From Candidatus Saccharimonadota bacterium (GTDB lineage Bacteria > Patescibacteriota > Patescibacteriia > 2-12-FULL-60-25): DNA of 32,000 nucleotides. The stretch is taken from NCBI GenBank assembly GCA_963718585.1, contig OY970357.1:1020001-1052000 (forward strand), given 5' to 3'. Positions 9,574-10,849 of the stretch are shown here, piece by piece (position 1 is the stretch's first letter; the number at the start of each line of letters is the position of its first letter). The translations under genes were made by a program, and so were the position numbers. The notes under the pieces are model-generated. The model saw only the letters and a list, made by a program, of their open reading frames with translations, ran no database searches and was not told where the DNA came from.

Positions 9574-9727
9574 CCGGGAGGAGTCGAACGGGGAGGGTGA
9601 TGGGAACCGGGAGGTTCCCATGGCGGAGGGGGCGACACCGCCCTTGCGAAGGGCGGGGGAGTTGGGAACCGAAGGGTTCCCAAGAGCGAGCTTCGCGAGC
9701 GAGTGAGATTCCACCCGGGGGCACCAG
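9574..9727 (+). repeat. tRNA-3'-end-mimic structured element, copy A (Arg-type)
   Basis: The left arm is an inverted copy of the tRNA-Arg T-arm. It is followed by three hairpins, a GCGAGC-rich segment, GTGAG, and a 21-nt copy of the tRNA 3' end including CCA (9707-9727). See findings. Confidence 0.75.
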
Positions 9728-9734
9728 GCAAAAA

Positions 9735-9758
9735 CGACCCAAACGGGTCGCTTTTGTT
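9735..9758 (+). terminator. hairpin plus T-run after element copy A
   Basis: CGACCC-aaac-GGGTCG followed by CTTTTGTTT. Confidence 0.5.
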
Positions 9759-9773
9759 TATCAGATCTGACAA

Positions 9774-9802
9774 TTGACGGCGGAAGGTTATAGACGCATA
9801 CT
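9774..9802 (+). promoter_or_regulatory. candidate promoter for the 87-aa gene
   Basis: TTGACG (9774-9779), a 17-nt spacer, then CATACT (9797-9802). Confidence 0.4.
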
Positions 9803-9829
9803 CGCGTCCTGCCGACGAGGAGGTGTTAT

Positions 9830-10093
9830 ATGGGATTCTGGCAGAACCGCGTTCTTTTTGATGGGAAAGCGTCGGAGTCGAATGATTCCGATCTCCATAA
9901 TGTGCTGGATGTGTTGGTCAGCGATCATCCGCCGGTCCATGCGCTGCTGCATGTCTTCTCCCGCGCCAGGGAAAGCGGCGCCTTTCGGCGGGACTTCGTC
10001 TCGTTCGTGAACATGGTGGCCGCAGGAGACTTTCCGATCTCCGCGCCCGCGAAACGGATCTTCGACACCTGCGTCGTCAGGCTTCCGAATTGA
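9830..10093 (+). CDS. hypothetical small protein (87 aa)
   Basis: An AGGAGG Shine-Dalgarno lies 6 nt before the ATG and a strong terminator follows directly. No family recognised. Confidence 0.6.
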   Translation: MGFWQNRVLFDGKASESNDSDLHNVLDVLVSDHPPVHALLHVFSRARESGAFRRDFVSFVNMVAAGDFPISAPAKRIFDTCVVRLPN

Positions 10094-10109
10094 TGCAGTC
10101 TTCTTTCCC

Positions 10110-10134
10110 GCCCCGATCCATTCGGGGCTTTTTT
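10110..10134 (+). terminator. rho-independent terminator after the 87-aa gene
   Basis: GCCCCGA-tccat-TCGGGGC followed by TTTTTT. Confidence 0.7.
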
Positions 10135-10160
10135 CTTGGAGAGAAGGAGATTCGAGACCC

Positions 10161-10189
10161 TTGCCAACGCTGCGAAAATCAGATACATT
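10161..10189 (+). promoter_or_regulatory. candidate promoter giving a ~195-nt leader to tRNA-His
   Basis: TTGCCA (10161-10166), a 17-nt spacer, then TACATT (10184-10189). Confidence 0.4.
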
Positions 10190-10389
10190 CCCACCGCTTT
10201 TCCCGCGTTCTGCGTGGCAGAGCGTAGGCATCGCGCTGTCAGACTTCGAGCGAAGCGAGAAAACGCAGGCGGTCGTCAGAGCGAATTCGTCCTTGCGAGC
10301 GTCAGCGAGCAAAGCACAGCGAGCCGTCGGGGCACGAGCGTGACACCGGAGGTGGAGCGCGAAGTGCATGACGGCGAAAGCGAGCACAT

Positions 10390-10464
10390 GGTGGCTATGG
10401 TGTAGAGGTAACACAGCGGGTTGTGGTCCCGTTATCATGGGTTCGATTCCCATTAGCCACCCCA
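10390..10464 (+). tRNA. tRNA-His (anticodon GTG) with encoded G-1 and CCA
   Basis: Manual cloverleaf: G-1 opposite C73, acceptor GTGGCTA/TAGCCAC, D stem GTGT/ACAC, anticodon stem GCGGG/CCCGT, loop TTGTGGT, T arm ATGGG-TTCGATT-CCCAT, then CCA. Confidence 0.95.
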
Positions 10465-10498
10465 CAAACAAACCTCCCATTTGGGAGGTTTGTTTGTG
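10463..10498 (+). terminator. hairpin directly after tRNA-His
   Basis: CACAAACAAACCTCCCA-tt-TGGGAGGTTTGTTTGTG. Confidence 0.6.
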
Positions 10499-10509
10499 GG
10501 AAGGACTGG

Positions 10510-10662
10510 TAAGGGAATCGAACGGGAAGGGGTTCGGGGAAACGGAAGTTTCCCCGTGGCGGAGGGACCCCGCCCTTCGCGAAGGGCGGGGTGGGAACCG
10601 ATGGGTTCCCATGCGCAGCGAGCACTCGCGAGCAGTGAGATTTCCATTAGCCACCCCACAAA
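10510..10662 (+). repeat. tRNA-3'-end-mimic structured element, copy B (His-type)
   Basis: Same architecture as copy A. It ends in a 24-nt copy of the tRNA-His 3' end (10639-10662, 1 mismatch). Confidence 0.75.
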
Positions 10663-10692
10663 AACTCCACCCTCATCATGGGTGGAGTTTTT
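10660..10692 (+). terminator. hairpin plus T-run after element copy B
   Basis: AAAAACTCCACCC-tcatcat-GGGTGGAGTTTTT. Confidence 0.6.
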
Positions 10693-10705
10693 ATTATGGC
10701 CGTTG

Positions 10706-10849
10706 AAATGGGGATCGAACCGTGGGAAGGGTGAAACCGTGAGGTTTCACTTGTGGAGGAAAGCTCATGAAAACCCGAATGTTTTCGAGGGAGGGCCCCG
10801 GATGTTATCCGGGGGACGAGGTGAGCATTCCCATAAGCCACCCCACAAA
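10706..10849 (+). repeat. tRNA-3'-end-mimic structured element, copy C (His-type, diverged)
   Basis: Same order of parts as A and B, but the hairpins have different sequences. It ends in a 24-nt copy of the tRNA-His 3' end (10826-10849, 2 mismatches). Confidence 0.7.

Follow-up and report, generated by a model that had tools for sequence, protein, structure and literature searches.

What are the three inserts that follow two tRNA genes in a 32,000-nucleotide stretch of Candidatus Saccharimonadota DNA (the whole of which we refer to as the window)? An earlier note on this DNA had described copies A (9574-9727), B (10510-10662) and C (10706-10849) as the same series of parts with a conserved fold, and had suggested an RNA shaped like an oversized tRNA. 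The pattern common to A, B and C is far beyond chance, given their RNA folding z-scores (-5.7, -3.8 and -2.6, respectively) and the at least 105 independent relatives that have the same layout. From these comparisons, the inserts belong to a large and apparently undescribed family of folded elements, 110-190 bases in length.

Anatomy of the three copies

Every part that had been described in A, B and C was found again, in order, at its former position or within 1 nt of it (Table 1). Hairpin H1 with its GNRA loop and the box that follows it are present in each copy, H2 and H3 were recovered as inverted repeats, and the copies of the tRNA 3' end as direct repeats, with one such repeat for tRNA-Arg and three copies of the sequence for tRNA-His. 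B and C represent two subfamilies placed in tandem behind the same tRNA-His gene.

Table 1. Features of the two tRNA loci and of copies A, B and C (window positions)
Feature	Position	Strand	Evidence
tRNA-Arg(TCT), target gene of A	9460..9536	+	ARAGORN; Rfam RF00005, 55.4 bits
Hairpin T1-A between tRNA and A; terminator-like, A-run before, T-run after	9541..9568	+	12-nt arms, 100% complementary
Left arm of A	9574..9589	+	inverted copy of tRNA-Arg 53-68, from the T-loop through the 3' strand of the T-stem to the start of the acceptor strand; 9513-9528 vs 9574-9589, 94% complementary
Purine-rich joiner of A, GGGGAGGGTG; family consensus GGGAAGGGG	9590..9599	+	
H1 of A, 8 bp, GGGA (GNRA) loop	9601..9620	+	
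Box of A, TGGCGGAGG; family consensus TGGMGGAAGG	9621..9629	+	direct repeat with B
H2 of A, CCGCCCTT/AAGGGCGG; optional, variable hairpin in family	9638..9656	+	inverted repeat
H3 of A, TTGGGAACC-GAAG-GGTTCCCAA; conserved second hairpin of family	9662..9683	+	inverted repeats
GCGAGC-rich segment of A, at position of variable hairpin H4	9685..9702	+	
Right arm of A: GTGAG followed by tRNA-Arg 58-76 in direct copy and a G	9703..9727	+	direct repeat, 28 nt, 89%
Terminator T2-A after A	9735..9760	+	
tRNA-His(GTG), target gene of B and C	10391..10464	+	ARAGORN, Rfam
Hairpin T1-B	10461..10500	+	19-nt arms, 100% complementary
Left arm of B, inverted copy of tRNA-His T-loop and T-stem	10508..10523	+	long hairpin in MIR5185 alignment
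H1 of B, 9 bp, GGAA loop	10535..10556	+	
Box of B, TGGCGGAGG	10557..10565	+	direct repeat with A
H2 of B, optional hairpin	10567..10592	+	inverted repeat
H3 of B, TGGGAACC-GATG-GGTTCCCA	10592..10611	+	inverted repeat
Right arm of B: GTGAG, direct copy of tRNA-His 3' end including CCA	10635..10658	+	85% over 34 nt
Hairpin after B; T2 of B and T1 of C	10660..10692	+	inverted repeat
Left arm of C, inverted copy of tRNA-His T-arm	10707..10720	+	10440-10454 vs 10707-10721, 93%
H1 of C, 7 bp, GTGA loop	10732..10749	+	
Box of C, TGTGGAGG	10752..10759	+	
Conserved second hairpin of C, AAAACC-CGAA-type, family H3	10764..10789	+	also in L003, L026, L028, L039, L116
Variable hairpin of C, H4 position	10796..10814	+	
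Right arm of C: GTGAG, direct copy of tRNA-His 3' end	10821..10845	+	74% over 34 nt
Terminator-like hairpin after C	10847..10873	+	

The two arms of each unit pair with one another. In A, the pairing of 9574-9585 with 9707-9718, over 12 positions with one A-A mismatch, is exactly as had been proposed. The arms of B pair with a 1-nt bulge, and those of C pair best one base over from the proposed register (10709-10716 with 10828-10835). The hairpin names also had to be adjusted: H3 of A and B is indeed the conserved AACC-loop-GGTT hairpin, and its counterpart in C is the hairpin formerly labelled H2 (10764-10789). The four-way architecture first suggested gives way, on family comparison, to a three-way junction formed by the paired arms (P1), H1 and H3, because H2 of A and B and the 10796-10814 hairpin of C, formerly labelled H3, are optional and variable (H2 and H4 in family terms).

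The likeness to an oversized tRNA was not upheld. Neither ARAGORN nor the Rfam models RF00005 and RF00023 call anything at 9574-9727, 10510-10662 or 10706-10849, and a tRNA, a tmRNA or a tRNA pseudogene was rejected on these grounds. At the gathering threshold, Rfam 15 matches only the two tRNAs in the window; at E <= 10 it returns weak matches only, well below the gathering score and due to terminator hairpins. The earlier note, which did not recognise the layout as any described RNA family, agrees with this result. Strings reminiscent of hammerhead or RNase P motifs (GAGGAAAG, CUGANGA-like) did not fit by eye, and Rfam was again negative. A G-quadruplex of the form GGG-AA-GGGG-TC-GGG-AAAC-GGG can be drawn in many copies; it is absent from B and C and would compete with the covarying H1. 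An Xer-like tyrosine recombinase gene is located 616 bp upstream of tRNA-Arg. Exact-protein look-ups turned up two short contigs and nothing else, both of them from a single other sample (ERR11571143).

A family behind tRNA genes, with a covarying core

A genome scan checked with nhmmer gave the relatives mentioned above, at least 105 of them true relatives among 118 matches listed, and nearly all relatives among these matches come from Patescibacteria (candidate phyla radiation). Eighty-eight copies matched the family pattern, 85 from the scanned loci and 3 from the window, and all 88 have a tRNA upstream on the same strand. The element always has the orientation of the tRNA. The spacing between tRNA and element is 6-124 nt in 85 of the 88 and 228-250 nt in the remaining three, two of which, L073 and copy C of the window, stand second in a tandem. 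Among the matches listed, the upstream tRNAs of the scanned loci cover at least 31 anticodon types, and one copy follows a tmRNA. Ninety-one of 202 tRNA or tmRNA genes are occupied, in loci selected for carrying one copy. An exact 7-nt copy of the acceptor strand is present downstream in 71 of the 88 copies; the direct repeats that flank the units correspond to the 3' part of the tRNA, which is reconstituted, as in islands and CIMEs that integrate at tRNA genes. With 110-190 nt, the units are short, non-coding and multi-copy within a genome, as are MITEs: the window contains three, FK3.bin42 at least three and several other MAGs two or three.

A literature search, which included exact sequence strings, found no description of the family. 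No copies were present in IMG/VR or in phage and plasmid collections, which led us to discard a viral, phage or plasmid origin. We also considered an alternative genetic code as an explanation for MAGs carrying the putative label 'Gammaproteobacteria', and found no signal of one.

The helices of the core vary in a compensated manner, as had been noticed from A, B and C. Because MAFFT misaligned the 3' arms, pairs were counted in Python from structure-independent anchors. H1 has 8 bp, five of which occur as two to four different pair types, and its loop is GNRA in all 69 copies. The outer positions of H3 are paired in 181 of 200 cases (112 +/- 5 in shuffles), and the left and right arms are paired at 427 of 621 positions (315 +/- 10 in shuffles); RNAalifold, applied to the family, recovers both H1 and H3. 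In 64 of 69 copies the better-folding strand is the tRNA-sense strand and not its complement, and GNRA or GNA loops are found on the tRNA-sense strand only. Single mismatches within helices are about equally G-T (some 10 unique cases) and A-C (some 8), a parity that departs from what selection on RNA usually produces. Supported helix covariation is a mark of structured RNAs, and a folded single-stranded DNA predicts the same. Covariation and GNRA loops suit an RNA equally well.

Arms copied from the tRNA, and how they may have arisen

A point missing from the earlier note concerns the left arm: its reverse complement corresponds to the T-loop and T-stem of the adjacent tRNA. The right arm is a direct copy of positions ~60-76 of that tRNA. 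Left arms are complementary to tRNA positions 53-58 in 66-68 of 69 copies and to positions 59-63 in 55-65 of 69, and this complementarity falls to chance by positions 68-72; the reach of the arm differs, up to position 72-73 in some copies and only to 63 in others. Right arms are identical to positions 61-73 in 65-69 of 69 copies. The ends of the element vary with the local tRNA, and only the T-loop motif TCGAAC/GTTCGA is common to the family. The flanking repeat is the tRNA tail, from 7 to more than 20 nt, and not a target-site duplication of fixed length. In one copy (L071), the arms come from another tRNA-Ser. A retro-element might carry in its arm a CCA that is absent from the gene. The two agree in 62 of 71 copies, CCA is found in the arm only in 7 and in the gene only in 2, and this sequence comparison gives no clear sign of copying from a mature tRNA.

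Identical units at different loci, together with arms that are both copied from the neighbouring tRNA, point to an insertion element in the first place. In FK3.bin42, a block of 199 nt encompassing T1, left arm, core and right arm occurs at two sites 480 kb apart with 1 nt different and has CCGCCAT on both sides; its arms, of CCCAC type, match neither the adjacent tRNA-Ser-GGA (CCCTC) nor the non-tRNA flank of the other site. Near-identical units are found behind tRNA-Gln-CTG and tRNA-Gln-TTG of one MAG (L003/L116), and four copies are truncated (L004, L030, L052, L091). Our preferred reading, which may well be right and which we put forward tentatively, is that each insert is a copy of a non-autonomous, MITE-sized mobile DNA element specific to Patescibacteria, which targets the 3' ends of tRNA genes and works in the form of a folded single strand of tRNA sense.

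The unit comprises, in order, the hairpin or terminator T1, the left arm (tRNA positions 53 to ~65-72, inverted), the core, GTGAG or GTTCG, and the right arm, and its core a purine joiner, the GNRA hairpin H1, the GGAGG box and H3, with H2 and H4 optional. It lies directly behind a tRNA or tmRNA gene, which remains intact and gains the element's terminator. As to the mode of insertion, we infer that the tRNA tail copied in the right arm would recombine with the tail of the gene itself, for which 7 or more identical bases may suffice. The putative active form is the folded tRNA-sense single strand with its left arm paired to its right arm: the arm duplex would mimic the T-loop and T-stem of the tRNA, the acceptor-CCA tail would stay single-stranded, and the two similar hairpin modules could offer a handle to a putative enzyme supplied in trans. 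Most copies have both arms matched to the local tRNA, which simple Campbell-type insertion would not achieve after a change of target; this counts against the reading, which needs a further process. Gene conversion or template switching could keep the arms matched to the local tRNA and the cores alike within a genome. The L019 pair, in which 118 of 123 core positions are identical and the arms are unrelated, fits gene conversion without proving it.

We saw no transposase or integrase linked to the elements and no autonomous relative, nor did we see, within the 8-kb loci, a parent insertion sequence sharing their ends. A tblastn search with the window's Xer-like recombinase matched one of 118 other loci, and a metagenome scan for the window's His locus, with 0 matches, yielded no empty site or circular junction. 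Core sequence is kept across very distant classes of Patescibacteria, which is unusual for selfish DNA and, like these absences and that of copies in viral, phage and plasmid collections, counts against a mobile element.

The main rival, which we hold to be unlikely but of real weight, is a functional structured RNA, which would arise as a 3' trailer of the tRNA or when transcription from the tRNA promoter reads through. P1 would then mimic the T-stem, the free acceptor-CCA strand would base-pair with the cognate tRNA or imitate it, the GNRA and AACC/GGTT hairpins would form a tertiary fold or bind a protein, and copies would have multiplied by duplication along with tRNA genes. Some units (L015, L023, L089) start as close as 6-11 nt to the tRNA, from which no hairpin separates them, and must therefore be co-transcribed with it. 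However, a terminator-like hairpin precedes the element in 27 of 69 copies (one follows it in 25 of 69), and in the three window copies no promoter-like site was found between T1 and the element. The strong covariation of H1, H3 and P1, the invariant GNRA loop and the single-stranded purine joiners conserved across the phylum all agree with an RNA, but in the same helices G-T is not favoured over A-C, and Rfam offers no matching family. Likewise, the better folding of the tRNA-sense strand, the constant orientation and a right arm far better preserved than the outer left arm would be natural in an RNA, whereas truncated and decayed copies, carriers that are a minority of tRNA genes even in loci chosen for one copy, and an identical unit at a non-tRNA site, with arms that mismatch its neighbour, would not. 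If the family is an RNA after all, it would rank with the most widely distributed structured RNAs that have so far escaped notice in bacteria, and it would be tied to individual tRNAs.

A bolder proposal, which we regard as improbable, is a replicon or transposon that has no genes of its own and finds its target through nucleic-acid complementarity. The arms would serve as an exchangeable guide for an enzyme acting in trans throughout the phylum, and the element would move as a folded single-stranded circle of ~190 nt, DNA or RNA, of viroid-like shape. Were this reading true, it would be a new kind of programmable insertion system, in the smallest bacterial genomes.

It is quite improbable that the inserts are attL/attR remnants (CIME-like scars) left behind when islands or prophages with an integrase of their own, once integrated at tRNA 3' ends, were deleted. 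Each unit does lie between direct repeats of the tRNA 3' end, the arrangement seen at integrated islands, and a tmRNA gene is targeted too. However, units of a uniform 110-190 nt with the same core behind at least 31 tRNA types would require an integrase of 31 specificities, or 31 integrases sharing one scar, and the covarying helices denote a sequence under constraint rather than in decay. The Xer-like recombinase gene near tRNA-Arg might speak for such an origin, but it lies 5' of the tRNA and belongs to none of the units, and integrases are not enriched at the other loci.

We give hardly any credence to an origin without mobility, in which replication template switching at T-arm or terminator hairpins (inverted triplication) made the direct-inverted-direct tRNA tails around a core that is a host cis-element for termination or processing: the tRNA 3' half, T1 and left arm do form one long quasi-palindrome, the hairpins before and after the L008 unit are nearly identical and the left-arm reach varies, but template switching cannot yield the same ~80-nt conserved core at more than 100 loci, the identical distant 199-nt units share T1 and not the downstream hairpin, and two subfamilies stand in tandem behind one tRNA.

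Patescibacteria have genomes of about 1 Mb that are thought to be poor in mobile DNA. If our preferred reading of a mobile element is true, a phylum-wide element sitting on most kinds of tRNA and on tmRNA, and harmless to them, would add a new layer to the genome biology of this group. Its design, a constant folded core with arms copied from the target, is unusual; should the arms dictate the target, the system could be reprogrammed, and it would be only ~110 nt long. In practice, such elements may be a nuisance, through broken assemblies and spurious annotations of tRNA fragments.

Relation to known systems

Islands, prophages and CIMEs integrate at the 3' ends of tRNA and tmRNA genes by means of tyrosine integrases, according to passages of PMC9897764 that cite Reiter 1989 and Williams 2002. 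Our elements have in common with islands and CIMEs the tRNA or tmRNA 3' target, the intact gene, the direct repeats of the tRNA tail and the tandem arrays at one gene. They differ in measuring 0.11-0.19 kb rather than kilobases, in lacking an integrase, in having one core behind at least 31 tRNA types, and in adding an inverted T-loop/T-stem copy and a covarying hairpin core.

Bacterial MITEs (Correia/NEMIS, RPE, ERIC) are short, non-coding and multi-copy, with inverted ends, hairpins, subfamilies and truncated copies, and the present family shares all these traits. Here, however, the inverted ends derive from the target tRNA and vary by copy, the choice of target is strict, and there is neither a short target-site duplication of fixed length nor a known parent insertion sequence.

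In IMEX (for example, CTX-phi) and in integron attC, a single-stranded DNA hairpin imitates or forms the recombination site, on which a tyrosine recombinase acts. As in these systems, direct and inverted target-like copies are split by a short hairpin at the left junction, an order expected if a single-stranded circle, in the predicted fold, were spliced into one target strand; the mismatches of GTGAG opposite CGAAC adjoin the presumed crossover side. The target is instead a tRNA tail and the element, ~190 nt and gene-less, is known here from its predicted fold and repeat order.

IS200/IS605 elements and the gene-less PATEs recognize their target and ends by base pairing to a guide of 4-5 nt beside a hairpin; they insert 3' of a fixed tetra- or pentanucleotide, have subterminal hairpins and go with a Y1 transposase in the genome. 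Our elements likewise stand directly behind a defined sequence, here the tRNA 3' end, have ends rich in hairpins, fold in a strand-specific manner and contain a segment complementary to the target. The complementarity of our elements, in contrast, spans 11-20 nt, not 4-5 nt, and the right end repeats the target; in an unsystematic look at the loci, we noticed no TnpA or TnpB genes.

tRNA-like RNA domains are known from tmRNA, YrlA and viral TLS. The helix resembling a T-arm and the acceptor-CCA 3' strand identical to that of a real tRNA are common features, but the element has no acceptor stem, D arm or anticodon arm, and its tail is a copy of that of the adjacent tRNA, whichever this is.

The inverted terminal repeat of parvoviruses such as AAV is a T-shaped, three-way DNA hairpin. 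The likeness is an analogy of shape, in that a long stem carries two short, similar hairpins and leads into a single-copy tail. The sequences are unrelated, and our element is not at a genome end. We consider it a possible model of how a protein might read such a fold rather than a sign of membership. In some copies, GAGC-like repeats are found beside the stem.

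The window copies and the anatomy of the family

Both tRNA genes of the window are followed by inserts: copy A stands behind tRNA-Arg, and copies B and C stand in tandem behind tRNA-His. All the parts that an earlier note had named in these copies are present, at coordinates that are exact or off by at most one base. A repeat finder returned the tRNA-tail copies as direct repeats (D2, the His tail three times; D4, the Arg tail twice, 89% identical over 28 nt) and the hairpins as inverted repeats (I2, I4-I6 and I11-I13). RNA folding of each copy was better than that of shuffled sequences, with z-scores of -5.7, -3.8 and -2.6 for A, B and C.

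The left arm, described in the note as GGnnTCGAAC, is there, but this description is too narrow: the arm is the reverse complement of the adjoining tRNA, starting with G53 in the T-loop and running along the 3' strand of the T-stem into the acceptor strand (I7 and I8 in the table). Since the left arm is an inverted copy and the right arm a direct one, every unit has two extra tRNA tails. The two arms can pair as had been proposed, in a helix that we call P1. Alternatively, the left arm may pair with the 3' half of the tRNA itself across the intervening hairpin, T1, and folding programs prefer this pairing once the tRNA is included in the sequence. The hairpins named H2 and H3 in the note are indeed the H2 and H3 of the family in copies A and B; in copy C, they are H3 and H4.

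Features of the window (positions within the stretch)
Feature	Position	Strand	Remark
Xer-like gene	7900-8844	+	XerC/XerD-like tyrosine recombinase; Phage_int_SAM and Phage_integrase domains
tRNA-Arg(TCT)	9460-9536	+	Rfam, 55 bits
I7	9513-9528 and 9574-9589		94% complementary
Copy A	9574-9727		
G-quadruplex motif	9590-9612		GGG-AA-GGGG-TC-GGG-AAAC-GGG; joiner and 5' half of H1
Core duplication	9593-9625 and 9655-9687		repeats D1 and D3; 70-82% identity
Promoter-like site	9774-9802		ahead of the ORF
87-aa ORF	9830-10093	+	between copy A and tRNA-His
AGCGAGC-rich stretch	10200-10390	+	just upstream of tRNA-His
tRNA-His(GTG)	10391-10464	+	Rfam, 64 bits
I8	10440-10454 and 10707-10721		93% complementary
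Copy B	10510-10662		
Copy C	10706-10849		
H3 of copy C	10764-10789		
H4 of copy C	10796-10814		

The order of parts in the family is left arm, joiner GGGAAGGGG, H1, box TGGMGGAAGG, H3, a short purine joiner, GTGAGAT/GTTCGAT and tRNA tail. H1 has 8 bp and, in each of the 69 copies, a GNRA loop (GGGA in 55, GGAA in 8, GTGA in 4), and H3 combines an invariant AACC/GGTT tip with a variable outer stem. Optional GC-rich hairpins of variable sequence may flank H3, H2 on its 5' side and H4 on its 3' side. Both are missing from the smallest members (L044, L060 and L069; about 110 nt), so that the conserved core is a three-way junction of P1, H1 and H3, not the four-way junction of the earlier note. Throughout the family, the halves of the core are alike in the manner of an internal tandem duplication, each consisting of a purine tract and a GGAAAC...GTTTCC hairpin; this likeness suggests two equivalent sites for the same kind of binding partner.

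Several departures from this plan were observed. Right arms at loci L003, L015, L020, L027, L031, L078, L093, L098, L112 and L119 hold a 9-nt insertion, AGCGAAGCG (variants GCAAAGC and GCGTAGC), which separates T-loop position 60 from the T-stem and makes a mini-hairpin of 2 bp with a 3-nt loop. Mini-hairpins of the GCGAAGC type are noted for their exceptional stability as DNA. Orthologous elements vary by big insertions within hairpins (66 nt within H3 in L047 versus L044; more than 100 nt in L084), and cargo is tolerated in hairpin tips. The G-quadruplex motif of copy A, found in most family members and missing from copies B and C, competes with the covarying H1. Locus L045 contains, at about 3190-3440, a unit of another sort that is shorter and is flanked by a tRNA-like 3' end and a complete element. 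Its parts are a left arm, a hairpin containing GCGAAGCG and the same tail copy, the conserved core being absent; it could represent either a separate class of tail-copying mini-element or the product of extreme deletion.

Other sequence near the window copies deserves mention. AGCGAGC/GCGAAGCGAG words are abundant just upstream of tRNA-His, where three of the ten AGCGAGC matches in the window fall; two more lie inside copies A and B. Such words are those of the variable H4 segment, and the stretch may represent the remains of an element, a promoter region or another kind of sequence. The exact product of the 87-aa ORF is absent from the records of the assembly collection.

Distribution and genomic position

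One genome from each species was searched for a pattern drawn from the common left part, namely TCGAAC, GGGRAGGG and the H1 tip; it matched at least 118 loci. According to a profile of the left half, 105 of the 118 matches listed are true relatives; the other 13 were rejected as chance hits or a stub, the chance matches including nine in one Burkholderia coding region as well as Halomonas and others. Carriers span the Patescibacteria broadly: among the matches listed, they are labelled Saccharibacteria, Uhr-, Moran-, Magasanik-, Komeili- and Berkelbacteria, Minisyncoccia and, as Parcubacteria groups, Jorgensen-, Kaiser-, Niyogi-, Colwell-, Harrison-, Taylor- and Liptonbacteria. About 20 third-party MAGs from a single assembly project, one of them a 0.9-Mb single contig, are labelled Gammaproteobacteria or Bdellovibrionales (L002, L016, L022-L024, L026-L028, L030, L039, L046, L050, L074 and others) and show no sign of an alternative genetic code. 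Such labels are perhaps mistaken, or else the family might extend past Patescibacteria. Nothing similar was found among the Rfam 15 families, consistent with the earlier note, which had recognised no described RNA in this layout, nor in IMG/VR, GenBank phages or PLSDB plasmids. No description of the family turned up in the literature searched, even when exact sequence strings were used.

All 88 pattern matches with a same-strand upstream tRNA, 85 of them in the scanned loci and three in the window, lie downstream of it, at 6-124 nt in 85 cases and 228-250 nt in three; of these three, L073 and window copy C are each the second unit of a tandem. The median distance from the discriminator to TCGAAC is 57 nt. 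At least 31 anticodon types are served in the scanned loci. Among the matches listed, one element (L097) has a tmRNA as host gene: it lies at about 2488, directly downstream of the tmRNA (2083-2436), and its arms copy the tRNA-like 3' end of that gene. Occupied tRNA or tmRNA genes are a minority (91 of 202), even in loci picked for having one copy.

Selection on a folded strand

Covariation, which the earlier note had proposed as a check, is strong in H1, H3 and the arms across the family. H1 shows two to four types of Watson-Crick pairs at five of eight positions, with nearly no mismatches. Outer pairs of H3 are formed in 181 of 200 cases, against 112 +/- 5 after random exchange of partners among copies, and the tRNA-specific positions of the arms in 427 of 621, against 315 +/- 10. 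RNAalifold recovered H1 and H3 from a plain MAFFT alignment, 8 of the 14 pairs showing double changes. Furthermore, the tRNA-sense strand outfolds its complement in 64 of 69 copies (mean gain, 7 kcal/mol), and purine-rich GNRA and GNA loops occur on this strand only. Judging from these comparisons, selection acts on the fold of one single strand of tRNA polarity, and the reasoning of the earlier note on this point holds. Its observation is confirmed and much extended; its interpretation is upheld in part.

We tentatively favour a non-autonomous mobile element exploiting tRNA and tmRNA tails, a reading to which we give slightly less than an even chance. A structured RNA co-transcribed with the tRNA is a serious alternative, albeit a rather unlikely one: it accounts better than selfish DNA for the phylum-wide conservation of joiners and loops, and some copies directly abut the tRNA, the hairpin between them missing (L015, L023 and L089). 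However, several features argue against a plain RNA gene. Promoter-like sites are absent between the preceding hairpin and each of the three window copies, and, under a strict rule, terminator-like hairpins are about equally frequent before the element (27 of 69) and after it (25 of 69). Isolated helix mismatches are G-T in about 10 distinct cases and A-C in about 8, whereas G-U is normally in large excess in functional RNAs. GCGAAGC-type mini-hairpins recur, including the insertion in the right-arm T-loop. Neither ARAGORN nor the tRNA model sees the inserts as tRNA-like, which also weighs against the oversized-tRNA shape put forward in the earlier note.

Signs of mobility and a putative route of insertion

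On one 1.52-Mb contig of MAG FK3.bin42, a 199-nt block comprising T1, left arm, core and right arm occurs twice, 480 kb apart, with one base different and CCGCCAT on both sides. The first site is behind a tRNA-Ser(GGA) whose T-stem reads CCCTC where the arms have CCCAC; the second has no recognisable tRNA ahead of the block. The hairpin upstream of the core moves with the unit and the downstream hairpin stays out. A Magasanikiibacteriota MAG holds near-identical units behind tRNA-Gln(CTG) and tRNA-Gln(TTG) (L003 and L116), the arms of L071 derive from another tRNA-Ser than that of the neighbouring gene, and truncated copies (L004, L030, L052 and L091) pass directly into ordinary genes. Behind the tRNA-His of the window, two subfamilies stand in tandem, copy C being closest, among the matches listed, to L026, L003 and L028 from other genomes. 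Scars of classical islands are a most improbable source of the inserts, and purely local template-switch products an even less credible one; both leave unexplained one conserved, covarying core at 31 targets or more.

No recombinase is carried along with the element. The Xer-like gene of the window, 616 bp upstream of tRNA-Arg, is not on the side of the tRNA where the element sits, and since homologues occur at 1 of the 118 other loci listed, its proximity looks coincidental. A metagenome scan for an empty site at the window His locus gave no match, and a circle junction, a single-stranded form and an enzyme were likewise not found. The sole other assembly with the window region, a Logan contig of ERR11571143 (L001), ends at about 9543, a few bases past the tRNA-Arg 3' end, as would follow from a collapse of short-read assemblies at the repeated tail or the element.

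The unit starts just past the last bases of the tRNA and ends with their copy, which leaves the gene intact and provides the unit's hairpin as a new terminator; the original terminator would be displaced to behind the right arm. Recombination would take place between the right-arm tail copy and the gene tail, 7 nt of identity probably being sufficient according to junction data. Parts at the left junction come in the order direct tail, hairpin, inverted tail, core, direct tail. A single-stranded circle, with inverted and direct copies paired, would give this order if spliced into one target strand. CTX-phi at dif and integron attC sites follow a like logic, in which a folded single strand is spliced into the target; the likeness lies in the order of direct and inverted copies at the left junction. 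By this analogy, we infer that insertion may proceed via a folded single-stranded circle. Its duplex would span tRNA positions 53 to about 65-70, leave the terminal 6-8 bases (acceptor end and CCA) single-stranded and place the GTGAG-opposite-CGAAC mismatches at the inner end of the stem.

Right arms are kept, the 7 nt of the acceptor strand being copied exactly in 71 of 88 cases, and the outer left arm decays to chance level; what matters is thus the tail copy together with the inner 11-13 bp of P1. The architecture of the element is unusual enough to leave a guide-like targeting mechanism of a categorically new kind some probability, albeit in our opinion a low one. At locus L019, the cores of two copies separated by 1 kb agree at 118 of 123 positions, yet the arms are unrelated, and on either side homology breaks off precisely at the T-loop motif. 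One of the left arms has the sequence TTTGAAC, matching the unusual GTTCAAA T-loop of its tRNA-Asp. This pattern is most simply explained by gene conversion among the cores of one genome; alternatively, template switching may have copied the arms anew from the adjoining tRNA.
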